64,000 nucleotides of DNA from Escherichia coli (GCF_003334335.1 NZ_QOWQ01000021.1), one strand, 5' to 3'. Positions 3,672-48,268 are shown, counted from the first letter of the stretch. Program-made: numbers and translations. Notes: generated from the sequence alone by a model not told the origin.

Positions 3672-5405
3672 GTGAATATTCAGGCTCTTCTCTCAGAAAA
3701 AGTCCGTCAGGCCATGATTGCGGCAGGCGCGCCTGCGGATTGCGAACCGCAGGTTCGTCAGTCAGCAAAAGTTCAGTTCGGCGACTATCAGGCTAACGGC
3801 ATGATGGCAGTTGCTAAAAAACTGGGTATGGCACCGCGACAATTAGCAGAGCAGGTGCTGACTCATCTGGATCTTAACGGTATCGCCAGCAAAGTTGAGA
3901 TCGCCGGTCCAGGCTTTATCAACATTTTCCTTGATCCGGCATTCCTGGCTGAACATGTTCAGCAGGCGCTGGCGTCCGATCGTCTCGGTGTTTCTACGCC
4001 AGAAAAACAGACCATTGTGGTTGACTACTCTGCGCCAAACGTGGCGAAAGAGATGCATGTCGGTCACCTGCGCTCTACCATTATTGGTGACGCAGCAGTG
4101 CGTACTCTGGAGTTCCTCGGTCACAAAGTGATTCGCGCAAACCACGTCGGCGACTGGGGCACTCAGTTCGGTATGCTGATTGCATGGCTGGAAAAGCAGC
4201 AGCAGGAAAACGCCGGTGAAATGGAGCTGGCTGACCTTGAAGGTTTCTACCGCGATGCGAAAAAGCATTACGACGAAGATGAAGAGTTTGCCGAGCGTGC
4301 ACGTAACTACGTGGTAAAACTGCAAAGCGGTGACGAATATTTCCGCGAGATGTGGCGCAAACTGGTCGACATCACCATGACGCAGAACCAGATCACCTAC
4401 GATCGTCTCAACGTGACGCTGACCCGTGATGACGTGATGGGCGAAAGCCTCTACAACCCAATGCTGCCAGGAATTGTGGCGGATCTCAAAGCCAAAGGTC
4501 TGGCAGTAGAAAGCGAAGGGGCGACCGTCGTATTCCTTGATGAGTTTAAAAACAAGGAAGGCGAACCGATGGGCGTGATCATTCAGAAGAAAGATGGCGG
4601 CTATCTCTACACCACCACTGATATCGCCTGTGCGAAATATCGTTATGAAACACTGCATGCCGATCGCGTGCTGTATTACATCGACTCCCGTCAGCATCAA
4701 CACCTGATGCAGGCATGGGCGATCGTCCGTAAAGCAGGCTATGTACCGGAATCCGTACCGCTGGAACACCACATGTTCGGCATGATGCTGGGTAAAGACG
4801 GCAAACCGTTCAAAACCCGCGCGGGTGGTACAGTGAAACTGGCCGATCTGCTGGATGAAGCCCTGGAACGTGCACGCCGTCTGGTGGCAGAAAAGAACCC
4901 GGATATGCCAGCTGACGAGCTGGAAAAACTGGCTAACGCGGTTGGTATTGGTGCGGTGAAATATGCGGATCTCTCCAAAAACCGCACCACGGACTACATC
5001 TTCGACTGGGACAACATGCTGGCGTTTGAGGGTAATACCGCGCCATACATGCAGTATGCTTACACGCGTGTATTGTCCGTGTTCCGTAAGGCAGAAATTA
5101 ACGAAGAGCAACTGGCTGCAGCTCCGGTAATCATCCGTGAAGATCGTGAAGCGCAACTGGCAGCTCGCCTGCTGCAGTTTGAAGAAACCCTCACCGTGGT
5201 TGCCCGTGAAGGCACGCCGCATGTGATGTGTGCTTACCTGTACGATCTGGCTGGTCTGTTCTCTGGCTTCTACGAGCACTGCCCGATCCTCAGCGCAGAA
5301 AACGAAGAAGTGCGTAACAGCCGTCTGAAACTGGCACAACTGACAGCGAAGACGCTAAAGCTGGGTCTGGATACGCTGGGTATTGAGACAGTAGAGCGTA
5401 TGTAA
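3672..5405 (+). CDS. argS: arginine--tRNA ligase
   Basis: 577 aa ORF with class I aminoacyl-tRNA synthetase HIGH-type motif (HVGHLRS) and ArgRS-like sequence throughout; GTG start. Confidence 0.97.
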
Positions 5406-8660: not shown

Positions 8661-9801
8661 GGGTCGGTTTCTCGTTAATAAAATCCAGGGCTTCCGGCAC
8701 CGGAAGATGAGTAGGTTGTACAGGGCGCTGTCCACCAGCCAGACGCCAGCGTTTCAGTTGCCAGACCCAGGCCAGCACTTCCGCCACCGCGGCGTACAGT
8801 TGACCCGGGATTTGTTGACCAATCTCCGCATGTCGATACAGCGCTCGCGCCAGCGGCGGCGCTTCAAGCGTCGGGACGTTATTTTCAGCGCCAATTTCAC
8901 GAATGCGCAGCGCGACCAGCCCTGCACCTTTAGCGACCACTTTCGGTGCGCTCATTTTGTTTTCGTCATACTGCAACGCTACCGAATAGTGGGTCGGGTT
9001 ATTGACAATGACATCCGCTTTCGGCACATCGGCCATCATCCGACGCCGTGCGGCAGCTCGCTGCATCTGACGGATCCGTCCTTTAACATGGGGGTCGCCT
9101 TCGCTTTGTTTGAACTCATCACGAATATCCTGCCGCGACATTCGCAGCTTTTTCAGGTGGCTGAATATTTGGAAAAAGACGTCAAATCCCACCATTGGAA
9201 TGACACCAAGCACCACCAGCAGTGCGCATAGCCCTACCAAATCCATCGCATTACCCATGGCGGTAATCGGAGACTCGGCCATTAAGCGCATCATCTGCGG
9301 CCAGTGATGCCAGAGATAAAACCCCGTCACGCTGCCAACCAGGATGTTTTTCAAAATTGCTTTAAGCAACTCCGCGCCAGTCTGAGCCGAGAACATCCGT
9401 TTAATGCCCGGTAGCGGGTTGAGTTTGGAAAACTTCGGCTGCAAGGATTTGCCGCTAAATACCAGCCCTCCCAGCATGACCGGAGAAATGAGCGCCACCA
9501 GCACCACGCCGCTAATCAGCGGCAGCAGCGCCAGCATGGCTTCTCTGATCAGCAGAATAATCTGCCCGAGGATCAGATTCGGGTCATTGATAATACTGTG
9601 ATCAAAATGCAGCCCAGCGGAGAGCATGCCCGACAATCGACGGGCCAGCGACACACCGCCAAACCAGATAACACTAACGCCCACCAGCAAAATCAGCAGT
9701 GAGGTCAGTTCACGGGAACGCGGGATTTGCCCCTCTTCCCGCGCTTTTTCTAGTCGGTGAGGTGTGGGGGCTTCTGTTTTGTCGTCGCTCTCGTCAGACA
9801 C
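8653..9801 (-). CDS. flhB: flagellar export apparatus switch protein FlhB
   Basis: 382 aa ORF MSDESDDKTEAPTPHRLEKAREEGQIPRS... with the NPTH autocleavage motif (VIVNNPTHYSVAL). Confidence 0.95.
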   Translation of the reverse strand: MSDESDDKTEAPTPHRLEKAREEGQIPRSRELTSLLILLVGVSVIWFGGVSLARRLSGMLSAGLHFDHSIINDPNLILGQIILLIREAMLALLPLISGVVLVALISPVMLGGLVFSGKSLQPKFSKLNPLPGIKRMFSAQTGAELLKAILKNILVGSVTGFYLWHHWPQMMRLMAESPITAMGNAMDLVGLCALLVVLGVIPMVGFDVFFQIFSHLKKLRMSRQDIRDEFKQSEGDPHVKGRIRQMQRAAARRRMMADVPKADVIVNNPTHYSVALQYDENKMSAPKVVAKGAGLVALRIREIGAENNVPTLEAPPLARALYRHAEIGQQIPGQLYAAVAEVLAWVWQLKRWRLAGGQRPVQPTHLPVPEALDFINEKPTHE

Positions 9802-9929
9802 GTCGCCAATCCTGGAAAGAGTATTAAGCGTGAATGATGCCAGAGCGCAAAGCGTTCAATGGTTTGAGTAAGGGGCAAAACAGGCGGGATTTAGGGCTTT
9901 TGCTGCCACACATCAAGCATAGTGTGCGT

Positions 9930-20749: not shown

Positions 20750-20817
20750 GACATCATCCTTCCACTGTTGACCATGACAGGATGTTCAGTCGTCAGGCGT
20801 TAACGCGCGATTGGGGC

Positions 20818-35846: not shown

Positions 35847-36104
35847 TTAAGATGGTTGCTCAACCCGCATAAAGAGCTTTTCATCAACTAACTGCTCCCA
35901 TTCATCGGGATCAAGCTCCCAAGAAGGAGCCGACATATCATCCTCATCCCCCTCATTTACAAAAGTAACCAAATAGAAAGGAAGATCTCCGGGCTCATCG
36001 TCATCGTCCTTGACAATATGAACATTAGTAACAACTATACGATTAGATGGATTAACTTTAGATACATATAAACCAATTAATGGAATTTGCGGATTAGTTA
36101 CCAT
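35847..36104 (-). CDS. hypothetical highly acidic 85 aa protein (cargo between repressor and integrase)
   Basis: ATG with upstream agagg SD; product has runs of D/E (VKDDDDEPGDLPFYLVTFVNEGDEDDMSAPSWELDPDEWEQLVDE); no family recognised. Confidence 0.6.
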   Translation of the reverse strand: MVTNPQIPLIGLYVSKVNPSNRIVVTNVHIVKDDDDEPGDLPFYLVTFVNEGDEDDMSAPSWELDPDEWEQLVDEKLFMRVEQPS

Positions 36105-36302
36105 AATTCATTTACCTCTTTGGACTTCCTCATGAACAAAGACTTACTTTTCTTTAAGACCATAACAAGTAATTCACACCATTTCTTACATCACTAGTTG
36201 CCCCCTCCCACCTTTGTCAGCTCGCTTAATTTATCTTTTTCATTTCTTTTAAAGTCGGTAAAGCAAGCTTTTGTCACAATATCTTTCTCCAACAACTATC
36301 TA

Positions 36303-36947
36303 TCAGAAAAGAACACTGCCTAATAAAACACCAACAACGAAACACATTCCTGTTTCTTTCGGGTATTTTCTAATTATTTGCTGAAAATTCATCTGTAATT
36401 GACTACCGGCAGAATTGTTGGCAGTTAATTTCTTTTCTCCTTCCACTGATTGTTGGTCTAACCAGGAAAGAGCCATCTGAAGCTGAGAACGAGTAAGATC
36501 GTTTAAGCGACCCGTTCCGAAATTGATATGGCAATAGCGGATAAGTTTTTGACGAAGCACTCCATCTTCACTATTACGAAGTAAAATACTTACAAGCGCC
36601 TTACGCGCATCATGATCTTTACATCGTTCAAGCATCGCACACAGAAAGCTCTCTGCGGTCTTATATTGATTCATTGTTATATCATCAATACTGTCTACAC
36701 CAATCTCTGCATGCAATTTTTGCCAAATAATAAACGCCTCGGTATTGCTGGCATCTACAATAGCAGCAACTAATCTATTTAATGCCTTCCGTTGCCCCTT
36801 AAGTAAGGGGCGTGGATCACTGTTATTGCTCGAAGGAATTGCGATATTGACGGTATGAGAGCCATCATATCGCCCTATCTGAATATTCTTTTCTTGGTAA
36901 TCTCGCCCAGCAATACGATTATCTGAACCGTTTGAGTTGACCGTCAT
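36303..36947 (-). CDS. hypothetical 214 aa protein with C-terminal hydrophobic anchor (cargo between repressor and integrase)
   Basis: Long ORF with good SD (ggaggtgg before ATG), C-terminal TM-like tail MCFVVGVLLGSVLF; N-terminus shares NRIAGRDY motif with the upstream repressor C-terminus. Confidence 0.7.
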   Translation of the reverse strand: MTVNSNGSDNRIAGRDYQEKNIQIGRYDGSHTVNIAIPSSNNSDPRPLLKGQRKALNRLVAAIVDASNTEAFIIWQKLHAEIGVDSIDDITMNQYKTAESFLCAMLERCKDHDARKALVSILLRNSEDGVLRQKLIRYCHINFGTGRLNDLTRSQLQMALSWLDQQSVEGEKKLTANNSAGSQLQMNFQQIIRKYPKETGMCFVVGVLLGSVLF

Positions 36948-36962
36948 GCCACCTCCTTGCTA

Positions 36963-37367
36963 TCACTTACCCTTTGTTTCGTTATAGTCACGGCCTGCGA
37001 TGCGGTTATTCCCGCCAGAGATATTTAACCCTCCCCCTGATGACTGACTCTCCTTTTCAGTGACTGCACCTTTCAAAGCACCAATCACCGCGTTTTTCAC
37101 ATCTAGTGAGGCACTCCGAAAACGTGTGATCAACTCCTGCTCATCATCGTTATAAGTTTCAGGTGAATGAATTCCCAACACGACATACTGAACATCAAGG
37201 CCAAAACGCGACAACGCTGATAAGTACGCCGCATCAGGAAAGCTATCCCCTTTCTCATATCTAAGTTGGGTTAACTTTTTAACCCCACCAATATCACTCA
37301 TAGCGACTTGGCTAAGACCCAGCCGTTCCCTTTCCTCACGCAACCGTTGGCCAATATCATTTTTCAT
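36963..37367 (-). CDS. XRE-family HTH repressor (immunity repressor, P2 C / CI equivalent)
   Basis: 134 aa; N-terminal HTH_XRE (IGQRLREERERLGLSQVAMSDIGGVKKLTQLRYEKG); leftward, divergent from the cox-like gene as in P2 immunity regions. Confidence 0.8.
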   Translation of the reverse strand: MKNDIGQRLREERERLGLSQVAMSDIGGVKKLTQLRYEKGDSFPDAAYLSALSRFGLDVQYVVLGIHSPETYNDDEQELITRFRSASLDVKNAVIGALKGAVTEKESQSSGGGLNISGGNNRIAGRDYNETKGK

Positions 37368-37376
37368 ACAAAAACC

Positions 37377-37405
37377 TTGACAGGTATCTTTTTTGATACC
37401 AAAAT
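37377..37405 (+). promoter_or_regulatory. candidate early promoter with embedded operator palindrome GGTATC-N6-GATACC
   Basis: TTGACA -35 hexamer, 17 bp spacer containing the perfect inverted repeat ggtatcttttttgatacc, then caaaat; lies between divergent repressor and cox-like genes. Confidence 0.5.
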
Positions 37406-37442
37406 ACTTTCATGAGCCATTAGATGAACACAATATACCACT

Positions 37443-37661
37443 ATGAAACAAGTTGTTCACGACACCAGATCACGGATTCCGCGTAACACAGCTACAGGAC
37501 CGCGACTGGCACTTCGATTGTCAGCAGAAGAGCGAGCCGTCATTGATGAAATGGCAACTAAAGAACAGCGCTCATCCTCTAACATGGCACGCATGATCTT
37601 CCTTCGTGGCCTTGAGATTATCCAGAAAGAGCAAAACCAATCTTCATGCTCAGGAGGTTAA
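37443..37661 (+). CDS. ribbon-helix-helix DNA-binding protein (Cox/Cro/Apl-equivalent first early gene)
   Basis: 72 aa; RLALRLSAEERAVIDEMATKEQRSSSNMARMIFLRGLE fits a strand-helix-helix pattern; first rightward gene after the repressor. Confidence 0.6.
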   Translation: MKQVVHDTRSRIPRNTATGPRLALRLSAEERAVIDEMATKEQRSSSNMARMIFLRGLEIIQKEQNQSSCSGG

Positions 37662-37665
37662 CGGG

Positions 37666-37869
37666 ATGCAAGGTATAACAATAAACATCAACGTTAATGC
37701 CCCTTACGTATCTCTGAAGAAATACGCCGAGATAACAGGCATTCCTCTTAACACATGCAAAAAGATGTTGGCTGACGGTCGAATTATTATCCGCCCCAAA
37801 CGCGCCAAAATGGAAAAACCAGAAGTAAACCTTATAGCTATGTTAAAAGACGCAATAGCCAACAGCTAA
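37666..37869 (+). CDS. small HTH regulatory protein (AlpA/excisionase-like fold, tentative)
   Basis: Internal Met of track ORF 37606..37869; YVSLKKYAEITGIPLNTCKKMLADGRI looks like a short HTH. Confidence 0.5.
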   Translation: MQGITININVNAPYVSLKKYAEITGIPLNTCKKMLADGRIIIRPKRAKMEKPEVNLIAMLKDAIANS

Positions 37870-37936
37870 ACAATGAAGCGAGCATAACTATGAAGAAAAC
37901 GTTTCATTAAAAACATCAAGATTTGAAGGTGTTGAC

Positions 37937-38131
37937 ATGACTGACTCCACTCAAACAAAAGACTTATACAGCGATTTACGATTCATCATCATACAACAGC
38001 AATCAGGCAGACTGGATCCAACACGTGCAAGCAAGGCCTGGAAAGAAGCACTTACCGATCAGGGGATCGATGTAATTAGCGAAGTCATGGCTGAAGTGAT
38101 TTTTAAGCTAACAAGAGACGAATCACTGTAA
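37937..38131 (+). CDS. hypothetical protein, 64 aa
   Basis: Track ORF in the early operon; no family recognised. Confidence 0.45.
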   Translation: MTDSTQTKDLYSDLRFIIIQQQSGRLDPTRASKAWKEALTDQGIDVISEVMAEVIFKLTRDESL

Positions 38132-38156
38132 TCATCGCATAAGGACCGAGTGAAGA

Positions 38157-38480
38157 ATGAAGCAACAACGAAATGCACGCATCAATAACAACACCGAACG
38201 CCACGTTGCACGCCAGCACTTCCGTAAAAATAGTGCGACCGCAACCACTGAAATCCATACCACACCAGACGGTCATCAGATAAAACAAACCGGAAAGCAC
38301 ACCTGGGCGATTGGCGACACTGGCATCGTTATTCACAAAAGTTTTCGTAGCCCTGTTACTGGCAGAATTAATTTTACCCTGACTCGCGGAGATGATTACT
38401 TCGGACAGGACTTCACATTTTTTGAAGCCTTAAGAACGGTCGATCGGTTAATGACTGGTCGTAATTTTCACGCTAAATGA
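38157..38480 (+). CDS. hypothetical basic protein, 107 aa
   Basis: Track ORF, co-directional and tightly packed in the early operon. Confidence 0.5.
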   Translation: MKQQRNARINNNTERHVARQHFRKNSATATTEIHTTPDGHQIKQTGKHTWAIGDTGIVIHKSFRSPVTGRINFTLTRGDDYFGQDFTFFEALRTVDRLMTGRNFHAK

Positions 38481-38493
38481 TACAGATGAAAAC

Positions 38494-38709
38494 ATGGAAA
38501 CATACAAAATTAAAGATATTGAACACCATGACGGTTTTTTCAGCGCTGAACATGTTGCTTGTGTTGTCAGGATTTTCAATGAAGTAGATGTGATTTTGAA
38601 GCAAAACATAAAGCTTGAAATCATCGCAAAAAGCGAAGCAGACGCCATTGAAATAAAAAAAGCTATTGAACGTCAGATAATACAGTTGACAAGTACCATT
38701 GTATTTTAA
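38494..38709 (+). CDS. hypothetical protein, 71 aa
   Basis: Track ORF, early operon. Confidence 0.45.
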   Translation: METYKIKDIEHHDGFFSAEHVACVVRIFNEVDVILKQNIKLEIIAKSEADAIEIKKAIERQIIQLTSTIVF

Positions 38710-38727
38710 GCAACAGGAAAAATAACC

Positions 38728-38967
38728 ATGACCAGAAATTACAAAGAAATCGTCAATCAGATCATTAAGGCTTACAGCCACCGCATTGCAAAATTACCCG
38801 AGTTCATACGCATAATGGAGACGCATTCATTAATGCAAGGACTGAACGGGTTGGCACTGGCCGCATTGGCAGCTAACGATATTGATGCCACCATCGAAAT
38901 AAACAACCTGTTATTAGACATTGAAAAAGGCGGAAACATAGAACCCTACAATCTGGAGGCCGCATGA
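38728..38967 (+). CDS. hypothetical protein, 79 aa
   Basis: Track ORF, early operon; stop overlaps the next small ORF (ATGA). Confidence 0.5.
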   Translation: MTRNYKEIVNQIIKAYSHRIAKLPEFIRIMETHSLMQGLNGLALAALAANDIDATIEINNLLLDIEKGGNIEPYNLEAA

Positions 38968-39089
38968 GCGTATTTCTTTCATGGCTAATTCTGATTATCT
39001 CCGTACTTATGGCAATCGGCATTATGCGAATTATCCACACACTGAAGGATATCGAATTATTCTTTACCGGCGATAAACGCCGTAAATAA
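38964..39089 (+). CDS. small hydrophobic peptide, 41 aa (single TM)
   Basis: ATG preceded by ggagg SD; MSVFLSWLILIISVLMAIGIMRIIHTLKDIELFFTGDKRRK; below ORF-track cutoff, found by manual translation. Confidence 0.5.
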   Translation: MSVFLSWLILIISVLMAIGIMRIIHTLKDIELFFTGDKRRK

Positions 39090-39101
39090 AGCGAAAACGT
39101 T

Positions 39102-39197
39102 ATGAAGAATGTAAAAGCAATACTCACCATTGCCAGTGTGTGGCTGATATTTCAGGTGTGTGCGCTTATCTGGTTAGCCCTGAAGATCTGGGAATAA
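39102..39197 (+). CDS. small hydrophobic peptide, 31 aa (single TM)
   Basis: MKNVKAILTIASVWLIFQVCALIWLALKIWE; weak SD; found by manual translation. Confidence 0.35.
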   Translation: MKNVKAILTIASVWLIFQVCALIWLALKIWE

Positions 39198-39302
39198 CCT
39201 TAAGCTTCAAATAAGAACGCAATAACACCAGAAAACATACGAACAATTAATTAAGGCATTCATGCCATCGGGTTCCCTTTGTCTTTTTTCAGGAGTCAAC
39301 AA

Positions 39303-39527
39303 ATGAGAACAGTCGAATCACCCGCAACCGCCAGACCAGTTAACCATCATGCACATATCAGCATGGCCGCGAGAAAAGCCGAGCGTGCGCATATCTGCGA
39401 ATTGCTCCGAGACCTGGTTAACACGGCGAAAGAGAAGCACTCCTCCCCGCTGGAAACCTGTTCAGCCATTGAACGACTGATTGCAACGCTCACGAACAAC
39501 ACCGAACTGAAGGGGTCAGCGCAATGA
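39303..39527 (+). CDS. hypothetical protein, 74 aa
   Basis: Internal ATG of track ORF 39279..39527 preceded by aggag; stop overlaps the exonuclease start. Confidence 0.5.
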   Translation: MRTVESPATARPVNHHAHISMAARKAERAHICELLRDLVNTAKEKHSSPLETCSAIERLIATLTNNTELKGSAQ

Positions 39528-40105
39528 ACCATCTCATGATTGACACCGAAACACTGGGTAACGGACCGGACGCAGCCATATTCGCGATCGGGGCGGTGTT
39601 TTTCGACCCGTTCACCGGAAAGCTGGGCAAGCAGTTTGAGAAATTCATCGACCCGGTAGATTCAGAACGCAACGGCGGAACCGTCAATGCAGCCACCGCT
39701 GTATGGTGGGCCGGACAATCCGTGGAGGCCAGATCCTGCCTGCGCAACGCAGAGGGAACAGAGCTTGCGGCAGTAACCGAATTTCTGGCGTTCATTTCAC
39801 GCAATATGCATGACGAAAGCACGGGCAATTCACTGACCATATGGTGTAAGGGCGCATCCTTCGATTTCCCGATCCTGAAATCCGCCATAACACGCACAGC
39901 CGGAGAAAAAAGCATCCCCTGGTGCTACTGGAACGAGCGCTGTATGCGCCCGCTTATCGCCATGGCTGAATCAACTGGATGGAAAATGCCAGGCAGATCA
40001 GGAAAAGAGGCCATTGCTCACACCGCGCTGGGCGACGCCATTTACCAGGCAAAGGTCGTGTCAGAAATCTGGCAGCGCTTCACAACACCATTCCTGAACA
40101 TATGA
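39524..40105 (+). CDS. DnaQ-like 3-prime-5-prime exonuclease (DEDDh family)
   Basis: 193 aa; Exo I motif MIDTETLG and Exo III motif HTALGDA. Confidence 0.75.
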   Translation: MNHLMIDTETLGNGPDAAIFAIGAVFFDPFTGKLGKQFEKFIDPVDSERNGGTVNAATAVWWAGQSVEARSCLRNAEGTELAAVTEFLAFISRNMHDESTGNSLTIWCKGASFDFPILKSAITRTAGEKSIPWCYWNERCMRPLIAMAESTGWKMPGRSGKEAIAHTALGDAIYQAKVVSEIWQRFTTPFLNI

Positions 40106-40338
40106 GGTGAAGCCATGGTCGCCATCCTGAATGTGTGTTGCTGCCCCCCCCTGAACGTGGAAAGAAAAGCCCGCGCATCGCTGCGTTTATTCCGCGACGG
40201 CGTGCGGAATTTTTCACGCATAAAACCCCACGACTACCTGGTAATAAGAATCGGTTTCCGCTGGCGATTACTGAGCAAAAACAACGGGGCGTCATGGGAT
40301 TTATTAACGCACGAAACCTATAACAAAGAGGCCGCGTT

Positions 40339-41319
40339 ATGAGCAAAGAACTGTTATCCGGTACGCCACTGAAATGGGTGGGCGGAAAAAGCCGCATCAT
40401 GAACACACTGAAGGCGCACCTGCCAGAAGCCGACTGTCTGGTTGAGCCGTTCGTGGGCGGCGCATCGGTATTCATGAACACCAGTTACAAGCGTTACATC
40501 CTGGGTGATTCCAATGGTGCGCTGATTAATTTCTACCGGCAAGCTAGGGACAACACCGACAGCCTGATCGACGAGGCGAAAACCCTGTTCCTGAACCACA
40601 ACAACAGGGGTGACTATCTCATCATTCGCGAAACCTTTAACGCAGAGAATCATGCCTTCCTGAACAGCAGAACGGGAATAAGCGACCGCCGTGAACTGCG
40701 ACTGGCCGCCATGTTTTTGTACCTGAACCGACACAGCTTTAACGGTTTGTTCCGCGTGAACGGAAAAGGCGATTTTAACGTGCCTTTCGGCTGCTACCGC
40801 AAGCCCTACTTCCCTGAGCGTGAAATCCGCGCATTTGCAGACAAGGCAAACAGCACCCGAACGCTGCTTATCCACGCAGATTTTAAGGATACGCTGAACT
40901 CTGCCAGTCACCTGTTCGGCATGGGCAACACGCTTTGCGTGTACTGCGATCCCCCTTACCTGCAATTCAGTGGCCGGGACAATTTTACCGCCTACGGAAA
41001 ACCATTCGATGAAGACGAGCACGTTCGTCTGAGGGCAGCGCTTGACCGCCTTTCACAGGAAACGGGCGGCATGACCAGCATCACCATCTCCAATTCCGAC
41101 ACACCGGAAACACGACGCATTTATCGGGGTTACCGGATGAACTGCATACAGGCACCACGAAGCGTTGGCGCAAGAACCCGGGAATCAGCACCGGAGGTTA
41201 TCGCCACCCTGAGACAGTGCGACGCCTGCGGTCACCATGGCGGTGGCTACTGCCCGGACTGCGGACCTGTAACGGGAGATGCAACTTACAGCGTGATGTT
41301 TACCCCTGCCAGTACGTGA
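40339..41319 (+). CDS. Dam-family DNA N6-adenine methyltransferase with C-terminal Cys-rich extension
   Basis: 326 aa; FxGxG SAM motif (VEPFVGGASVF) and catalytic DPPY; C-terminus CDACGHHGGGYCPDCGP looks like a zinc ribbon. Confidence 0.85.
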   Translation: MSKELLSGTPLKWVGGKSRIMNTLKAHLPEADCLVEPFVGGASVFMNTSYKRYILGDSNGALINFYRQARDNTDSLIDEAKTLFLNHNNRGDYLIIRETFNAENHAFLNSRTGISDRRELRLAAMFLYLNRHSFNGLFRVNGKGDFNVPFGCYRKPYFPEREIRAFADKANSTRTLLIHADFKDTLNSASHLFGMGNTLCVYCDPPYLQFSGRDNFTAYGKPFDEDEHVRLRAALDRLSQETGGMTSITISNSDTPETRRIYRGYRMNCIQAPRSVGARTRESAPEVIATLRQCDACGHHGGGYCPDCGPVTGDATYSVMFTPAST

Positions 41320-41354
41320 ATAAACAGATGAATCAGTAACACCGGAGTCAGGAA

Positions 41355-41591
41355 ATGAATAGCGAAAACAACAAAGAGCTTTTGCGGGAATTGCGTCTCA
41401 TCGCCCGTGCACATGAGGAAGCAGCAAAAGTTATCGCTGCTGCTGGAAGACCAGAGCTCGTTATCGCTTCAGCAATCTCACTGAGGATCACCATGGAAGC
41501 AATCCGGGTGATTCAGGATCAGGAAAGTGAAATCGCCACCCTTAAAAAGCAGCTCAACGAGAAATCTGCCGGGCAAAGGAGTCAGCAATGA
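41355..41591 (+). CDS. hypothetical protein, 78 aa
   Basis: Track ORF; predicted helical; early operon. Confidence 0.45.
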   Translation: MNSENNKELLRELRLIARAHEEAAKVIAAAGRPELVIASAISLRITMEAIRVIQDQESEIATLKKQLNEKSAGQRSQQ

Positions 41592-41806
41592 TCCAGGAAT
41601 CAACCGTTATCCGGTTCACAGCCAACGGCCGTCAGTACGAGGTAGACGAAGCCCTGATTGATTACAGCATGACCCGCCAGAGCTCACGCTTTCAGGACAT
41701 GTACCACATCCGGCTAATCAACGGTTCGTCTTTCAACGCCACAAACGTGGAAGAAGTACGCGTGCTGACAGCAACACGCAACACGGGAGGTAAAGCGTGG
41801 CAGTGA
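41588..41806 (+). CDS. hypothetical protein, 72 aa
   Basis: Track ORF overlapping neighbours by a few nt, indicating translational coupling. Confidence 0.45.
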   Translation: MIQESTVIRFTANGRQYEVDEALIDYSMTRQSSRFQDMYHIRLINGSSFNATNVEEVRVLTATRNTGGKAWQ

Positions 41807-42147
41807 TTTATATCGCCGGCCCCATGACCGGATACGAAGACTGCAATAGAACGGCGTTTTGCCTGGAGGATCTGAAGCTTCGGTGCGCCGGAAACATCGT
41901 TCTTAATCCTGCCGTACTGCCTGACGGATTAAGCCAGCAGCAGTACATGAGTATTTGTATTCCGATGCTCATGTGTGCCGATGCCATTTACTTACTGGAT
42001 GGATGGGAAGAATCCGCTGGCGCACGGGCTGAGTACGCAATGGCGCTCAAACTGAACATGCCAGTGTCATTCCCGGAAAACCGGGCAGCCGTCGAAACCG
42101 TCGCGCAGCTGCTTCACAAATCAAAAGCCACACAGGCGACTGAGTAA
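41797..42147 (+). CDS. DUF4406 / nucleoside 2-deoxyribosyltransferase-like protein
   Basis: 116 aa; VIYIAGPMTG ... LLDGWEESAGARAEYAMALKLNMPV resembles the small Rossmann-like DUF4406 family common in prophages. Confidence 0.6.
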   Translation: MAVIYIAGPMTGYEDCNRTAFCLEDLKLRCAGNIVLNPAVLPDGLSQQQYMSICIPMLMCADAIYLLDGWEESAGARAEYAMALKLNMPVSFPENRAAVETVAQLLHKSKATQATE

Positions 42148-42585
42148 CCGACCGGAGATCGAAACATGATTGCGCGAAGAGCTGCCAACCGCCTCACAGG
42201 CTTTATTCCAGGCAAGGTTGATCATGCACTCCATCACGGCGCTGTCACTTTCCTCAACAAAGGAGAGGCGCGCAATCATGCATTCTGGGGTGAGCACGTG
42301 GCGCTGGCTAATCAGTCTTTGATAGCTAAGCGCCTGCCATTCAGCCTTTTCAGCTCTGATAGAAAGAGAGGCAGCCATGACCTGCCACACCAGAAAGAGC
42401 ACCACACTGGCGAAAACAAACGTTGCGCTGTCGCAAAAAATGAATGCGGCAACAATCGCAAGGAAAGCGCTAATCCTCAGAACCAAGGAAGCGCGACGGT
42501 GGAGAAGGCTTGTCATGTGTTCAAGCCAGTAGCTGTACCACAGGTCAAAAAGAATTTCGTAATCAGAAGGGAGCTTATCACTCAT
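42121..42585 (-). CDS. hypothetical membrane protein (about 154 aa, 2 TM) encoded antisense to the early operon
   Basis: Track ORF 42121..42768; first ATG at 42585 gives MSDKLPSDYEILFDLWYSYWLEHM... with two hydrophobic helices; its 3-prime end overlaps the DUF4406 gene convergently by about 27 nt. Confidence 0.55.
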   Translation of the reverse strand: MSDKLPSDYEILFDLWYSYWLEHMTSLLHRRASLVLRISAFLAIVAAFIFCDSATFVFASVVLFLVWQVMAASLSIRAEKAEWQALSYQRLISQRHVLTPECMIARLSFVEESDSAVMECMINLAWNKACEAVGSSSRNHVSISGRLLSRLCGF

Positions 42586-42765
42586 CAGAAACACCCCGCG
42601 TATGCAGACAATCACCAGTTGCCAGGTGATATTAATTCGCAACATTCTAACCACATCAGCACGCAACACAAAAACCGCTTGCCAGCGCTCGTCGTGTCGG
42701 GTTACATTTCCGCTGCACCTCATAAAACGGGTGCCGGGATTTCCACCCCGCTGACAAACGAAGCG

Positions 42766-42790
42766 CACAGCCGCGCCAGCGGTTTTTTTG
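42766..42790 (+). terminator. terminator-like hairpin plus T-run in non-coding gap
   Basis: ccgc-gcca-gcgg followed by ttttttt. Confidence 0.35.
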
Positions 42791-43258
42791 TGCGTACTGT
42801 ATCGCCACGTCTTTTTCGCGTCAGAATTATGGCGGGGCGTACAGGGCCGACTTCGGTCGGGCCGGTTTCTTCGTTTGCCGGTTGTGGAAACCCTGTACGT
42901 CTCGCCACCCTGAGTTTTCCACCTCTGGTTGGTGAGTTTTCAAAATTCACAAACGAAGAGGCCACACCATGGCAAACCGCAAGCAACAGCGCGCCCGCGC
43001 TGAGCGTCTTCACATCCACAGCGAAATCAACCGCAGACTTTTCCGCGCAACACGCGTCGCGCAAATCATGCATATCAACATGCTGCATGAGCGCACGCAC
43101 GCACTATCAAACCGTTACTGCGCTGCCGTCTTCAGCTATCTGGCCGAAGACCTGGCAGAACTGCAAAGCCTCATCAACCAGCACCGATAAACCACATCCG
43201 GAAGCTATCCCACACCTGCACGCGGGAGGCTTCCGCACATCTGTTACCGGAGGTTCTC

Positions 43259-43675
43259 ATGAAGAGCGTTAAGGGACTTTCAGATATTCAGGACTTTTTT
43301 AACTGGATGTGGGCGGAGGATCCCCTGCTGGCTTCCCGCCTGAACGACTGGCACGACTGTTACCGTCGCGCCTGTAAACAGGCTGCCCGCAGCGTCACCA
43401 CATACGGGGATTTCTCCTTCACCGTTGACGATCGTTACCGCGTGGACGTGAAAGGTGATGGTGATGGCTTTGGTTTATTTCACATCAACGGCATCGACAG
43501 CACCACCATCAGCTGGTCGTCATCAGAGATGGCGCTTGTGCTGGAGATGACAAACCACAGCGTGGCCGTGAAAGGTATATACACCGCAGAAGACTTTATC
43601 GGTGAATACCAGCGCCTTCTCATGCTGTACCGCGCGGCGTTTCAGGCGGCAACTGCCGGGGAGTGCGACGCATGA
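43259..43675 (+). CDS. hypothetical protein, 138 aa (upstream of A; B/orf-equivalent position)
   Basis: Track ORF; stop overlaps the start of gene A (ATGA). Confidence 0.55.
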   Translation: MKSVKGLSDIQDFFNWMWAEDPLLASRLNDWHDCYRRACKQAARSVTTYGDFSFTVDDRYRVDVKGDGDGFGLFHINGIDSTTISWSSSEMALVLEMTNHSVAVKGIYTAEDFIGEYQRLLMLYRAAFQAATAGECDA

Positions 43676-46185
43676 GCGACCATAACGCACAACTGGCGTA
43701 CCCGTGGAACGCCCCGCTGCAAGTTATCGATCCTGAAACGTTCGGCAGAGCGCAACCAACCGCATTACGCCAGGTCATTCAGAGCTACATCAACGAAGAC
43801 ATTCGCATTGATGCCAGACTAGATGAAGAAACCGTCGCCTTCCTGACAAACACAGACGAAGGCAAGCGAATTAATTTGCATCTTCACCGCGACGAAGAGC
43901 GTCGGATCAGACTGGAAAAAGTGGTGCGGCGCAAACGCGAATATCCGCCCACGCTGGTATCGAAAGCCATGGCAGAACTTCGCGCCCTGCCCTCGTTTCT
44001 TGGTAACGCGCTCATTCGTGATCTGGCGCGTTTAAACCGCAAACAGCAAAGCGCCCGCCATGAAGGCGTGAAAAACAACAATACACACGTGGCTGATAAC
44101 TTTGTTCGCCGTGGACTGCGCACACGCCTGAAACGCATCGAACAGGTGAATGAACGCTTCGCCACGACAGCATTCAAAGCCACCGCAGCGCGTCATCGCC
44201 TTGATGAATTACTCATGCTGCCACAACTCAACCGTGATCAAATTCAGCGCCTTGCCACACTAACGGCGGCGGCATTTTCCACCGAACTGGAACGCATATG
44301 TGATGAAGTTACTGAGCGGACAGGAAAAGGTGACGATAACCTGTTCACCTGGTTGCTGACTTACCAGCAGCTGGCGCGCATGGCGTTAAAACTGGGCGTG
44401 ACCCCACCATACTGGCCGTCACTCGAGATCAGACGTGACCGCCGCACGGCACCAGACCCTGAACTGGTACCGGGTGCGGTAATGCGTATCACCTGCGCCA
44501 CCTGGTGGAACAACCAGCTGCGCCACCTCGCAGATCTCTGGCGGGAGGAATTACTGCGTGCCGCCGGAAGAGTATCGCGCAAGGCATCCCCCTACATCAG
44601 TCATGAGTCACTCCAGGAATTCCGGGAGAAACGCCAGCGCACCCGTGATTTTCTCAAAAGCTGGGACATTGAAAACGAAGACGGTGAACGCCTGAGTCTG
44701 GAGGACGTGTACTGGTCAGGGCTGGGGAATCCGCGCAACCGCCGCAACGAGATGATGGCCTGCGTCAGAGGGATGGAACAGGTCGCCGAATCGCGTGGTG
44801 ACTCCGCGTTCTTCGTGACAGTAACCTGCCCTTCCCGCTTTCACAGCGTGAACGAGGACGGCAGCCTGAACCCGAAATACAACGGTGCCACCGTGCGCGA
44901 TGCCAGTGATTATCTGGTTTACGACGTCTTTGCAGCTGCAAGAAAAAAACTCAACAAAGAAGGCCTGAGCTGGTACGGGGTGCGCACCGTTGAGCCACAC
45001 CATGACGGCACACCACACTGGCACATGCTAGTATTCACTTCCCCGGACAATGAAGAACGCATCATTGAAATCATGCGTGACGCAGCAATCAAATCAGATC
45101 GCGCAGAACTGGGGAATGATATTTCTCCGCGCTTCAAGTGCGAAAAAATCGACCCGGCAAAAGGCACACCGGCAAGCTACATCGCAACCTATATCGGCAA
45201 GAACCTGGACACCAGCACCTTCCATAACAATGACCCGAAAACCGGCAAACCTTACGCCGATAAAGAATCGGGAAAAACCATGGCGGAAACCGTGGAAAAC
45301 GCCATTGCCTGGGCGAGTCTCCATCGCATCCGTCAGTTCCAGTTCTTCGGAATCCCGCCCCGCCAGGTATGGCGTGAACTCCGCCGCCTTGCCGGACAGA
45401 TGGAGCGCAACCCCGCATCACCGAAGCGCCTGGACCATGACGACATTGACGCCATTCTGGCCGCCGCTGACGTGGGGTGTTTTGCCACCTACATCAACCG
45501 TCAGGGCGGCGTGCTCATTCCACGCAACCTGTACCTGATCCGCACCGCATACGAAACCGCAGATGAGGCCAATGATTACGGGGAATTTCCTCAACGTATC
45601 TGGGGAATATGCGCCCCGTCGCTCGGCGAGCGCTACACCATCTGTACCCATCCGGACGAATGGAAACTGGTCAGAAAAGAAGCGAAAACCGACAACAGCA
45701 CGGACGAGGATTTTGACGTTGGGGGCGGCTTCGCCGCACCTTGGACTCGTGGCAATAACTGTCCCCATGATGAAAAAACAGACACCGGAGAGGGTAAAAC
45801 CCCACCACCGGAAACCAGGAAAGAACAAAAACTGGTCGTCCCGGGAGGTGATTTGGGTGAGTGGTTAAGGTCACTGACCCCCACAGAGCGAAAACAACTC
45901 ACCAGGCAGCTGAAAGATGCGCCATCTGACACAAAAACCGTGAAAACCGGCGGCCCCACCACGCCCGATGACGTCATACATGTGCGTACAGCATTGCCGC
46001 TGACTGACGTCACCACCACCGTAATCAAGTCGGCACTGAGCGCGACGGGCGAGGAGCTACACAGTGGCGCAGCACTTTCCGTACACAGAGGTGCACGCGT
46101 TCGCCTGCCTGACGGGCGGATTGTGCACTGGGATGAGAAATCACGAAGCCTGGTGGCAGCAGATCAACCGGAGGTGAACCCATGA
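43672..46185 (+). CDS. A: rolling-circle replication initiator endonuclease (P2 gpA family)
   Basis: Track ORF 43663..46185; HUH-type motif HWHMLVF and twin-tyrosine motif ASYIATYIGKN as in P2 A. Confidence 0.88.
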   Translation: MSDHNAQLAYPWNAPLQVIDPETFGRAQPTALRQVIQSYINEDIRIDARLDEETVAFLTNTDEGKRINLHLHRDEERRIRLEKVVRRKREYPPTLVSKAMAELRALPSFLGNALIRDLARLNRKQQSARHEGVKNNNTHVADNFVRRGLRTRLKRIEQVNERFATTAFKATAARHRLDELLMLPQLNRDQIQRLATLTAAAFSTELERICDEVTERTGKGDDNLFTWLLTYQQLARMALKLGVTPPYWPSLEIRRDRRTAPDPELVPGAVMRITCATWWNNQLRHLADLWREELLRAAGRVSRKASPYISHESLQEFREKRQRTRDFLKSWDIENEDGERLSLEDVYWSGLGNPRNRRNEMMACVRGMEQVAESRGDSAFFVTVTCPSRFHSVNEDGSLNPKYNGATVRDASDYLVYDVFAAARKKLNKEGLSWYGVRTVEPHHDGTPHWHMLVFTSPDNEERIIEIMRDAAIKSDRAELGNDISPRFKCEKIDPAKGTPASYIATYIGKNLDTSTFHNNDPKTGKPYADKESGKTMAETVENAIAWASLHRIRQFQFFGIPPRQVWRELRRLAGQMERNPASPKRLDHDDIDAILAAADVGCFATYINRQGGVLIPRNLYLIRTAYETADEANDYGEFPQRIWGICAPSLGERYTICTHPDEWKLVRKEAKTDNSTDEDFDVGGGFAAPWTRGNNCPHDEKTDTGEGKTPPPETRKEQKLVVPGGDLGEWLRSLTPTERKQLTRQLKDAPSDTKTVKTGGPTTPDDVIHVRTALPLTDVTTTVIKSALSATGEELHSGAALSVHRGARVRLPDGRIVHWDEKSRSLVAADQPEVNP

Positions 46186-46586
46186 CACGATTCCATTGTG
46201 TACTCCAGCGCCATGATTTCAGCGCCATCATGAGTGGACGCATTCCGGCACTGACGCTGAGCGGCGTCAGTGTTCGACCACAGCCAGGCGACGAACTGGA
46301 GATCACGATCGCAAACCCCGATCGCAGCACAGATACCGTCATGACCGACATCCTGACTGCAAGAATCAACACCGACAGAAGCGCATTCATCGTTGCCGTG
46401 CGCCCTCGTCGCGCCATATCAGAGCCTGAACCACTGACTCCCGTAGGAAAAATCATGCAGGCATACCACGAAAAACAGACCAGAAAACTCAACGAAGAAC
46501 TGGCAAGAACGCTGGCCGTCGTTAACCGAAAAGCGGCAATTGTCCGCTATGTGCATTCGGCCGCCAGCAGGCAATCACACAGGTAA
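46182..46586 (+). CDS. hypothetical protein, 134 aa (first gene after A)
   Basis: Track ORF; ATGA overlap with the stop of A. Confidence 0.5.
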   Translation: MTRFHCVLQRHDFSAIMSGRIPALTLSGVSVRPQPGDELEITIANPDRSTDTVMTDILTARINTDRSAFIVAVRPRRAISEPEPLTPVGKIMQAYHEKQTRKLNEELARTLAVVNRKAAIVRYVHSAASRQSHR

Positions 46587-46595
46587 CAAAAGACC

Positions 46596-46805
46596 ATGAA
46601 CATGACCAGAAACAGCAAACCGAAGGAGCACACCATGAACGACATCAGGAGGATCAGCGACAAAGAGCTTACGAAAATGATTGAGTCGGCGCAGCAGCTG
46701 CTTTCACGACGAAATCCGGTTGTGGAAGAAACATGGTGGGAAAATTTACTGGCAGCACTGACCGAACTCCGCGAACGCCGGAACAACGAAGGAGCCGCCA
46801 AATGA
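46596..46805 (+). CDS. hypothetical protein, 69 aa
   Basis: Track ORF; stop overlaps the next start. Confidence 0.45.
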   Translation: MNMTRNSKPKEHTMNDIRRISDKELTKMIESAQQLLSRRNPVVEETWWENLLAALTELRERRNNEGAAK

Positions 46806-47140
46806 AGACACCCAGAATGACCGGAAAGGTAATCATTTTACGCTACCTGGAAACGCACGCACGCTTCAGCACACCAGAGCTGGTTGAAAAACTGGGCGTG
46901 AAAAGGACCATCATTAATCAGGCCGCCGGAAAGATGGTACGCGAAGGGCTGCTGGTTGTGGACGGGTACACGGACAAGATAACGCATTACCGGAAGCCAA
47001 CGGAAAAGGAACGACTGGAGCTGGAGCGGCGGGCTGAACAGCAACAAAAGCCGTCCGTAATCCAGGACTGCAAGCGAAGCGAAATCATGAAGCGAATTCT
47101 GTTTATCTACGGCGCTGGCGAAGAGCTGCCAGTCATCTAA
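46802..47140 (+). CDS. winged-helix DNA-binding protein (about 112 aa)
   Basis: Internal ATG of track ORF 46733..47140 overlapping the previous stop; ILRYLETHARFSTPELVEKLGVKRTIINQAAGKMVREGLLVVDG resembles a MarR/winged-helix fold. Confidence 0.55.
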   Translation: MKTPRMTGKVIILRYLETHARFSTPELVEKLGVKRTIINQAAGKMVREGLLVVDGYTDKITHYRKPTEKERLELERRAEQQQKPSVIQDCKRSEIMKRILFIYGAGEELPVI

Positions 47141-47172
47141 CCCCAACAATAAAACCAACACGGGAGACAAAT

Positions 47173-47490
47173 ATGCCAACACAGGTTGCAACAGAGGGAC
47201 GACTGGCAGCAGACCCGAACACAAGGAGAACAACCAAAGGAACCAACGTCACAACGGCACAACTGGCGGTATCACTACCCTGCCATGGAGCAGAACAGCC
47301 AACCACAATGTGGCTTTACTTTATTGCATTCGGGAAGCAGCACGAAGAACTGGCAAAACACAGAAAAGGCGATCTGATTCTGGTGCACGGAAACTTGCAG
47401 GTAAACAGGTATCAGGACAAGTACGGGCAACAGAAAGAGAGCTGGCAGTTGCTGGCGCAAAGCATTATCAGCTCAAGAACCGGGCGATGA
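47173..47490 (+). CDS. SSB-like OB-fold protein lacking the acidic C-terminal tail
   Basis: 105 aa; pattern G-L-DP--R-T--G-----LA ... W--V--FGK-AE ... KG--V-V-G-L---RY-D--G mirrors the SSB N-terminal OB domain; no DDDIPF-type tail. Confidence 0.6.
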   Translation: MPTQVATEGRLAADPNTRRTTKGTNVTTAQLAVSLPCHGAEQPTTMWLYFIAFGKQHEELAKHRKGDLILVHGNLQVNRYQDKYGQQKESWQLLAQSIISSRTGR

Positions 47491-47508
47491 CTTCTCGCAT
47501 GTTACCCT

Positions 47509-47552
47509 CAGCAGCGAGGGTAACACAGGATTTCTTTTTTCAGTCAAACCGA
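47509..47552 (+). terminator. rho-independent terminator ending the rightward A operon
   Basis: Perfect inverted repeat gttaccctc agcagc gagggtaac followed by a T-rich run (tttcttttttc). Confidence 0.75.
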
Positions 47553-48268
47553 AATCGGCCGCTTGTCGCGTATGCATAGGTGACCACCGCACCCAGCGCA
47601 TTCACACGCTTCTTCACATAAATCACATTACCATCCTGATAGTCACCGTATGGGTAGCAAATAAATATTGTTTTTTGCAAATCAGGATCATCAACAAATG
47701 CCCCTGAACAACTTTTTGAGCTACCGCGACTGTACTCATAGGGAGCGGAATAGAATGAATCTTCACCCGGAAGAAAATATATCAGCGTAACCAGGAGGGT
47801 AAACAGAATCATCCAGGTAAGAAGGCACATACCCGAAAAAAACTTAAGATACGATGTAACCCCGGTAAATTTAGACCGATCAACCAGGTTCTTTTTCAAC
47901 AGGCACAGTGAGGCAAAAACCGAAAGCACCACAGACACTGAAACAAGGCAGTTTGTCGTGAACGAATAAAGGTAGGTAATTCTGTAAACATCGTTTCGCC
48001 ACCAAATAAAAAGAAAAATCCCCCCCAAAACAGAAAGCGTGACAAAAGTTAAATAAGGATATGAGTAATTTTTCACAGTTCTCACCCGGCAGTCTCCCAC
48101 TGATTCAGACAGATGAATATCATCACCACCTGCCACAAAAAATCGCAAGATCAAAACTGCACAAAAGCGCACGAAATTGCACAATTTTTCTAATGTACTT
48201 TTTCCCCATTCCGCCCGGTAACGGCGCTGGCTGAGGCCGGTTTGCACGGTGCACGAAAAACGAGGCAA
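47540..48268 (-). CDS. hypothetical multi-pass membrane protein in the A-Q cargo hotspot (start uncertain; likely GTG near 48076, about 178 aa)
   Basis: Track ORF with three hydrophobic helices and about 75 aa C-terminal soluble domain; body looks markedly AT-rich by eye; candidate GTG start preceded by ggtgag SD. Confidence 0.6.
   Translation of the reverse strand: MPRFSCTVQTGLSQRRYRAEWGKSTLEKLCNFVRFCAVLILRFFVAGGDDIHLSESVGDCRVRTVKNYSYPYLTFVTLSVLGGIFLFIWWRNDVYRITYLYSFTTNCLVSVSVVLSVFASLCLLKKNLVDRSKFTGVTSYLKFFSGMCLLTWMILFTLLVTLIYFLPGEDSFYSAPYEYSRGSSKSCSGAFVDDPDLQKTIFICYPYGDYQDGNVIYVKKRVNALGAVVTYAYATSGRFRFD

Follow-up and report, generated by a model that had tools for sequence, protein, structure and literature searches.

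The 64,000-nucleotide stretch of Escherichia coli DNA analysed here (GCF_003334335.1 NZ_QOWQ01000021.1; hereafter the window) is a chromosome segment that contains a P2-like prophage, near-identical copies of which adjoin ppa/chpSB in other strains. Four open reading frames (ORFs), O1 to O4, follow the gene for the rolling-circle replication endonuclease, gene A, on the same strand. We consider these to be, probably, the distal genes of the lytic replication operon, encoding replication and anti-exclusion accessories. By sequence, O3 is a homologue of the lambda protein Ren and O4 is an SSB (a protein that binds single-stranded DNA) without the usual C-terminal tail. A preliminary description of the window had located the four ORFs, all of which are present and intact on the plus strand where it placed them. 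It interpreted them as cargo that might act against incoming phages, with a phage replication accessory as the alternative. It is the alternative that the evidence favours, through the strand shared with gene A and the coupling to it, the homology of O3 to Ren, and the occurrence of the SSB subfamily of O4 at replication genes.

Gene identities and operon anatomy

O3 shares 40% identity with lambda Ren over 99 amino acids (BLASTP E 4e-25; residues 6-104 of O3 and 1-93 of the 96 residues of Ren), and it matches phrog_142, the 'Ren-like exclusion protein' family (E 4e-29). On this alignment O3 is a full-length homologue of Ren. Matches to the Pfam models MarR_2 (E 1e-4) and GntR (1.4e-3) agree with the winged helix noted in the preliminary description, but the suggestion made there that the protein may regulate the module is replaced by that of a replication-linked, anti-Rex Ren homologue, not a cassette-specific regulator. 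Ren homologues were identified in 156 phage records. These come without exception from temperate phages of the lambda-like, Stx-converting or similar kinds, and the Peduoviridae records of the phage collection contain none. In almost every annotated record among the matches listed, the matching gene is adjacent to P or a helicase-loader gene or overlaps with it. Lambda ren overlaps the P stop codon, and O3 starts 617 nucleotides past the stop of gene A in the same operon. Toothman and Herskowitz are said to have found in 1980 that lambda becomes Rex-sensitive when it lacks Ren. The description of ren by Thomason et al. is 'likely involved in DNA replication', and the same authors report two-hybrid interactions between Rex and O and between Rex and Ren.

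O4 matches the Pfam SSB family (PF00436; E 6.5e-15, residues 4-98), phrog_44 (E 1.6e-25) and 26 solved SSB chains, the best of which is 2fxq (E 3e-10). Its TIGR00621 score of 50.5 bits is slightly below the cutoff of 53.95. Identification as PriB was considered and rejected: the 16 NCBIfam matches are all to PRK/TIGR models of the SSB family, of which 15 carry an SSB description and none is PriB, and the PDB matches are to SSB or SsbB only. Judged by these profiles, O4 is a genuine SSB-family OB domain, which bears out both the SSB N-domain pattern and the missing acidic tail reported in the preliminary description. The protein stops where the OB domain does (...SIISSRTGR) and has neither linker nor acidic tip, whereas its homologues run about 40 residues longer and end in ...YDDDF, ...FDDETPF or ...GDNIPF. 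No tail remnant encoded 3' of O4 was found by tblastn. Of the aromatic residues that stack on single-stranded DNA in E. coli SSB (EcSSB), O4 keeps the equivalents of W54 (W47), F60 (F53) and W88 (Y80); the equivalent of W40 is absent from the whole O4 subfamily, tailed members included.

Gene A, which is annotated as 'replication endonuclease' in near-identical E. coli prophages, overlaps O1 through an ATGA stop/start (46182-46185), and O2 overlaps O3 in the same way (46802-46805). The other two of the four junctions are short gaps, of 9 nucleotides between O1 and O2 (48 if O2 starts at 46635) and of 32 nucleotides between O3 and O4. Thus the ATGA coupling earlier ascribed to these genes is found at A/O1 and O2/O3 and gives way to gaps at O1/O2 and O3/O4. 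A GGGAGA ribosome-binding site precedes O4, and AAGGAG lies 7 nucleotides before the O2 ATG at 46635. The G+C fraction (0.51-0.56) and its third-position value, GC3 (0.54-0.65), cover gene A, O1-O4, the portal gene Q and the terminase gene P; the ORF on the minus strand beyond O4 has values of 0.44 and 0.45.

O4 is followed by a G+C-rich hairpin of 10 base pairs, GTTACCCTC-N6-GAGGGTAAC, and 6 nucleotides later by the T-run TTTCTTTTTT. The predicted fold has a free energy of -18.9 kcal/mol (z = -3.3), with 1 of 200 shuffled sequences equally good. A strict terminator scanner did not call this hairpin because of the 6-nucleotide spacer before the T-run; the 'clean terminator' of the preliminary description is thus a hairpin with a T-run after O4, but not one that the scanner accepts. 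It separates O4 from the convergent minus-strand gene. The hairpin 3' of the SSB gene is kept in the window and in the comparison loci L001, L009 and L112-114, and the T-run occurs only in window-type loci. We rejected the possibility that the hairpin is part of the cargo cassette, given that it also lies 3' of the SSB gene in L112-114 despite different cargo there; only the T-run is on the cargo side.

O1 is found directly after A in every examined locus with an A at least 75% identical. Its predicted structure is a beta domain of ASCH/PUA-like type at the N terminus (residues 1-75) followed by a single long helix at the C terminus. A Pfam search gave no match, nor did tblastn against 50,697 phage records, and a word-indexed protein search for O1 and O3 returned close relatives only. 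P2 Orf91, which carries a DUF3850/ASCH annotation, resembles O1 in lying immediately after A, in its ATGA overlap with the A stop and in its predicted fold class. It differs in lacking the extra C-terminal helix of about 47 residues, and there is no detectable sequence similarity between the two (BLASTP E 18; hhalign probability 0.1%). These searches led us to reject a tie at the level of sequence and to retain one at the level of predicted fold only. Going by the predicted structures, O1 appears to be the fold-level and positional counterpart of Orf91. As O1 is constant in the A lineage and has an Orf91-like predicted fold class and position, it is not cargo; the 'four-gene cargo operon' of the preliminary description therefore loses O1, and its variable part is O2-O4.

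In the long version of the O2 ORF, residues 14-69 match phrog_14672 (E 1e-34). Because only these residues are matched and AAGGAG precedes the internal ATG, translation probably starts at 46635, and O2 is probably a small helical protein of 56 amino acids.

No promoter-like site was found on the plus strand between 45800 and 48700 in a consensus scan. Upstream of gene A we identified, in order, isrK-type and C4-type RNAs, a 'derepression protein' ORF and an ORF of 138 amino acids (Table 1), with hairpin/T-runs on the plus strand at 42769-42784 and 42853-42865. This region looks like an RNA immunity cassette of the P1/P4/Gifsy-1 style inside a P2-like prophage. RNAs of the isrK and C4 kinds govern downstream antirepressor or replication genes in P1/P7, P4 and Gifsy-1. 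IsrK is treated in PMC4825925. Given the strand of A, the partial coupling, the lack of a promoter-like site and the RNA immunity cassette upstream of A, we infer that O1-O4 should be silent in the lysogen. No LexA box (CTGT-N8-ACAG) was found near the operon of the kind present in the 186 p95/tum region, the sole match in the window being at 20765. Apart from A, no homologue of the P2/186 early genes was found in the window, P2 B included, and PHROG scans of ten early ORFs upstream found no helicase loader. P2 B is a DnaB-interacting lagging-strand factor.

Two further features of the upstream DNA may be recorded. Between 41700 and 43700 there are 13 terminator-like hairpins, against 2.4 expected. 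The early region (36000-43700) has genes for an Arc-like repressor and a Dam methylase, for proteins resembling ParE and a nucleoside 2-deoxyribosyltransferase, and for a 3'-5' exonuclease.

Table 1. Features around gene A and the O1-O4 genes, in window coordinates.
Feature	Position	Strand	Remarks
Promoter-like site	42679-42708		
isrK-type small RNA (Hfq-binding)	42715-42789	+	Rfam 64.1 bits (gathering cutoff, GA, 50)
C4-type antisense RNA	42825-42912	+	Rfam 82.1 bits (GA 45)
'Derepression protein' ORF	42969-43190		
ORF of 138 amino acids	43259-43675		
Gene A, rolling-circle replication endonuclease	43663-46185	+	31% identity to P2 A, 37% to 186 A; the PGAP start is an ATG 9 nucleotides downstream of 43663, giving 837 amino acids
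O1	46182-46586	+	134 amino acids, ORF call
O2	46596-46805	+	Open for 69 amino acids; likely start 46635, giving 56 amino acids
O3	46802-47140	+	112 amino acids; Ren homologue by sequence, N-terminal half winged helix
O4	47173-47490	+	105 amino acids; SSB-family OB domain by profile, without linker or acidic tip
Hairpin and T-run	47500-47525 and 47530-47539 (region 47500-47540)	+	Probable end of the plus-strand transcription unit
Predicted membrane protein gene	47540-48268	-	242 amino acids; low G+C; neighbouring cargo outside the operon

Relatives of O4 and the loss of the SSB tail

The nearest relatives of O4 are SSBs of 138-151 amino acids (44-55% identity) with a short linker and a tip, the tips being ...YDDDF, ...FDDETPF, ...FDDSIPL, ...FDDDIPF and ...GDNIPF. 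In most of 69 loci with an O4 homologue, the SSB gene lies shortly 3' of a replication gene; a few are unplaced. For the tailed relatives, nearly every locus examined has the SSB gene immediately behind a primase or primase-helicase gene of a satellite-like element. The replication gene is A in P2-like elements, with O1-O3 in between, and a primase or primase-helicase in satellites, where primases were judged by tblastn with three primase queries and the PHROG assignment was confirmed for three. P4-like elements with the order int-AlpA-AntA-Ash-primase-SSB were identified in Klebsiella, Enterobacter and Buttiauxella; Edwardsiella and Budvicia have primase-SSB elements related to these. In E. 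coli, a satellite with such an SSB gene (L107) also has capsid, decoration-protein and small-terminase genes. A DNA match to the Klebsiella satellite SSB gene is present in 1488 of 5426 complete E. coli genomes; the one match inspected is located in a satellite. Among phage records, tblastn with O4 returned only four Faecalibacterium phage SSBs (about 36% identity), and a literature search found nothing specific on this module or on satellite SSBs.

An uncalled fragment was observed right after the SSB gene in Klebsiella P4-like satellites (L002-L005, 8473-8793; L096, 9484-9801), and also in L126, L138, L145, L146 and L149. It matches roughly the last 100 residues of a portal protein of the P2 type (37-53% identity), which suggests past recombination between helper and satellite near cos.

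All P2-linked copies of O4 that were found have the 105-amino-acid form or are decayed versions of it. Tail-less proteins were also identified outside this group. A satellite clade of 113-114 amino acids (L154-L163) abuts its own primase, L137 encodes a form of 113 amino acids that is 92-94% identical to tailed forms, and a Kosakonia form has 121 amino acids. Also present is a more distant tail-less homologue of 107 amino acids, 3' of a DEAD-box helicase gene in an integrative mobilisable element. The identity matrix indicates that the losses in the P2-like clade, the satellite clade, L137 and Kosakonia are independent; on this evidence tail loss in the O4 subfamily arose at least four times, each time beside a replication gene. 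O4 itself is on a long branch, with at most 53% identity to any tailed relative, compared with 63-94% among those relatives.

Distribution, selection and competing readings

The comparison set comprised 80 IMG/VR loci with relatives of gene A and the 5426 complete E. coli genomes. Presence of the four genes is nested: O1 occurs in all loci with an A at least 75% identical, O2 in a subset of these (present in L009-L012, absent from L008 and L013-L015), O3 in fewer and O4 in the fewest. The 73 loci with an A of 32-38% identity have none of O1-O4. About 2500 of the E. coli genomes have some P2-like A, 42 have the C-terminus of the A type found here together with O1, and about 24-25 have the complete O1-O4 set. 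A megablast search of the 1.5-kb region against the 50,697 phage records gave no match. Thus the interval is not core to all P2-like phages, and the general conservation that would have refuted the preliminary description is not seen.

L012 and L013 belong to the same A lineage but are more distant, and their head module differs (Q 32-34% identical). In both, an Ogr/Delta-like zinc-finger ORF, identified by eye, separates the genes on the A strand from the portal gene (L012, 4990-5340, minus strand; L013, 9246-9521, minus strand).

O1-O4 are under purifying selection, with ratios of nonsynonymous to synonymous divergence (dN/dS) of 0.1-0.5 overall and of 0.17-0.49 for O2, 0.16-0.29 for O3 and 0.16-0.33 for O4. 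Three O4 alleles, with differing downstream DNA, are separated by dS values of 0.35-0.86 and all have exactly 105 codons. The worry that the SSB-like ORF might be a degraded pseudogene is therefore not borne out in the window. The same values bear on the notion that O4 is a functionless fragment of a satellite-type SSB, eroding since a cargo swap at the hotspot boundary. Allele homology in L011 and L006 does stop a few bases from the O4 stop codon, from which it follows that the variable region starts right at the end of O4, and decayed copies exist in L112-114, L119 and L120. Yet three alleles have kept their length at dS up to 0.86, equivalents of three of the four key aromatic residues are kept, and the clusters of intact O4 (165, 45 and 11 member sequences) outweigh the decayed ones (5 and 3). 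We regard erosion as highly improbable.

Several points weigh against the assignment of O1-O4 to the replication operon. O4 is replaceable: in L010 (IMGVR_UViG_3300028991_000053), with an A that is 96% identical, the O4 slot holds an ORF of 109 amino acids (9501-9830). In L112-114 O4 is a pseudogene (4950-5210), with a 60-nucleotide in-frame deletion and a 1-nucleotide insertion in an A-run that causes a frameshift, and in L119 and L120 it is disrupted or shortened. O1-O3 are intact in all of these loci with decayed O4; hence the SSB gene is dispensable in some lineages. P2 and 186 have no SSB of their own and replicate nonetheless. The OB fold of O4 is read from sequence profiles, EcSSB H55, a tetramer-interface residue, is Leu in O4, and the long branch of O4 could mean a changed function. 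The promoter scan was a crude consensus test. Lastly, we know of no established biochemical role for lambda Ren.

The gene in the O4 slot of L010 is also the starting point for a different interpretation. Residues 61-105 of its product correspond to the zinc-binding domain at the N terminus of ClpX (NF003745, E 1.9e-11; phrog_6797, E 1e-44), with no ATPase module, so that here too the slot holds the docking domain of a host hub in isolation. O4 expressed in the lytic cycle could compete or co-assemble with tailed SSBs of the host or of a satellite and strip tail-dependent partners from single-stranded DNA. Replication and repair of the host or satellite would then cease, and the replicon driven by A would go on. 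The closest relatives of O4 are satellite SSBs, with a DNA match to such a gene in 1488 of the 5426 E. coli genomes, the long branch would follow tail loss, and the SSB of phage SPP1 inhibits host replication in vitro (PMC3561973). But satellites themselves carry tail-less SSBs beside their own primase (L154-L163, L137), which means that tail loss is compatible with plain replication service. OB-domain identity is 44-53% and H55 is not conserved, so mixed tetramers are uncertain. This interpretation seems to us rather unlikely. Its extension, in which the slot after the Ren-like gene takes isolated host-hub binding domains (tail-less SSB, ClpX zinc-binding domain) as lytic dominant-negative decoys, is also rather unlikely. 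In that case O4 would have been captured from the satellite SSB family and, by coating single-stranded DNA or co-assembling with tailed SSBs, could block recruitment of tail-dependent nucleases, helicases, restart factors and the satellite replisome.

O3 and O4 could instead form a counter-defence pair that masks replication intermediates from abortive-infection sensors such as RexAB, in which case their main value would lie in escape from exclusion and not in efficient replication. The homology of O3 to Ren fits this, as do the two-hybrid interactions of Rex with O and Ren (Thomason et al.), the presence of O4 only where O3 is present in the loci examined, and a patchy distribution with pseudogenes, as expected of a conditionally useful function. 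In L010, though, O3 occurs without O4, the mechanism of Ren is not established, and no sensor is known that is blocked by a tail-less SSB. We think it unlikely that this is the purpose of the pair.

We thus return to the replication operon as the probable setting of these genes. O1-O4 would be transcribed together with gene A and partly coupled to it in translation. O1, with its predicted ASCH fold, travels with the A lineage, as Orf91 does in P2. O3 would probably act at or on the replication complex, as has been inferred for lambda, and may shield lytic growth from Rex-type exclusion. O4 would be a minimal SSB whose likely role is to cover the strand that is displaced when A initiates rolling-circle replication. 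Without a C-terminal tip it should be unable to recruit exonuclease I, RecQ, RecO, PriA or the chi subunit of Pol III, and it would thus serve as a passive shield or an extra SSB supply for phage DNA.

The P2 hotspot and comparison with known systems

The interval between gpA and gpQ is a defence hotspot of P2 (Rousset et al., PMC9122126). It contains the TO region (tin-old) of P2, and the preliminary description placed its SSB decoy in the slot of tin. In P2, tin and old are on the strand opposite A and active in the lysogen, and the start of their separate transcript has been mapped to a point past old, close to the right cohesive end; only Orf91 is on the A strand. O1-O4 share the variable interval with tin-old but differ in being on the A strand with no promoter-like site detected. 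It follows that the window counterpart of tin/old is not O4 but the minus-strand ORF at 47540-48268, beyond which come Q (portal) and then P (terminase). The product of this ORF is a predicted multi-pass membrane protein, with phrog_1416 matching residues 153-242 and no match in Pfam, NCBIfam or PADLOC. The gene is replaced by other genes in L010, L011 and L006. On strand, composition and position it appears likelier than O1-O4 to be lysogenic-conversion cargo.

The proposal that O1-O4 themselves are a lysogenic-conversion defence, in which the tail-less SSB, perhaps under winged-helix control, decoys the replication of superinfecting phages much as P2 Tin acts through T-even gp32, has their location in this hotspot on its side. 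The set is variable among relatives, and the exact arrangement (WP_032330903 + WP_000856784 + WP_133301447) is contained in Table S5A of Rousset et al. (PMC9122126). The tested-systems file of the same study does not mention the SSB arrangement (PMC9122126). PADLOC identified no defence model in the five ORFs, only weak winged-helix matches for O3 (WH_III-A, E 7.5e-4). The G+C content of O1-O4 is like that of the phage core and unlike that of the adjacent low-G+C cargo, the relatives of O4 are in replication modules, and O3 is, by homology, Ren. With the A strand, the partial coupling, the missing promoter-like site and the position downstream of the RNA immunity cassette also against it, we find a defence role in the lysogen very improbable, and the idea of a decoy in the tin slot is not supported by these observations.

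In prophages of the sister type, L011 (10075-10823) and L112-L114 (5327-6075), a pair of genes encoding TumE-like (PF20126) and HVO_A0114-like (PF25212) proteins lies 3' of the SSB gene on the same strand. This is probably a toxin-antitoxin or defence pair. As the hairpin in L112-114 is without a T-run, read-through from the replication operon is possible there.

The components of the module are of known kinds (SSB, Ren and an ASCH fold), and the arrangement has been catalogued before, though it is unstudied. New here are the finding that a P2-like phage carries a Ren homologue, the tracing of O4 to the SSBs of satellites, the repeated loss of the SSB tail, and the distinction between operon-tail genes and true hotspot cargo. 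Not all contents of the gpA-gpQ interval are lysogen-expressed cargo; strand and promoter logic sorts replication-operon genes from conversion genes, and this sorting affects the mining of hotspot catalogues for defence systems. The repeated tail loss beside replication genes is a natural experiment on the need for the SSB tail in phage and satellite replication, and a Ren homologue in a rolling-circle phage offers a second system for a lambda gene whose mechanism has been unexplained for decades. If true, the decoy interpretation would constitute a new type of phage counter-measure against hosts or parasitic satellites; unless it proves true, current concepts are unchanged.

Four known systems may be compared with O3 and O4. 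Lambda Ren is likewise a small winged-helix protein; its gene is the 3'-most of the replication genes and is translationally coupled to the one before it. O3 is longer by 5 residues at the N terminus and by about 8 at the C terminus, and it is encoded by a P2-like phage in which the initiator is a rolling-circle endonuclease instead of lambda O/P. Bacillus subtilis SsbB (3vdy), matched by O4 at E 5.5e-4, and E. coli PriB are also SSB-derived, OB-only proteins of ~105-115 amino acids with no partner-recruiting tip. Tail-less SSB paralogues are thus known, and these two have dedicated roles in competence and in the primosome. They are encoded by chromosomal genes, whereas the O4 gene is carried by a phage and tied to a rolling-circle initiator. 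G36P of SPP1 retains its C-terminal tail. Like O4 it is a phage-encoded SSB, in its case serving rolling-circle replication (PMC3561973), but SPP1 has its own helicase, loader and origin-binding protein. An SSB gene is present in about half of double-stranded DNA viruses, and its product typically has an acidic tail (PMC4889955). The primase-linked satellite SSBs are the closest relatives of O4 in sequence and, like it, are encoded last in a replication operon beside a variable region; they differ in that most have the ~40-residue linker and acidic/aromatic tip and in that the preceding gene encodes a primase, not A.

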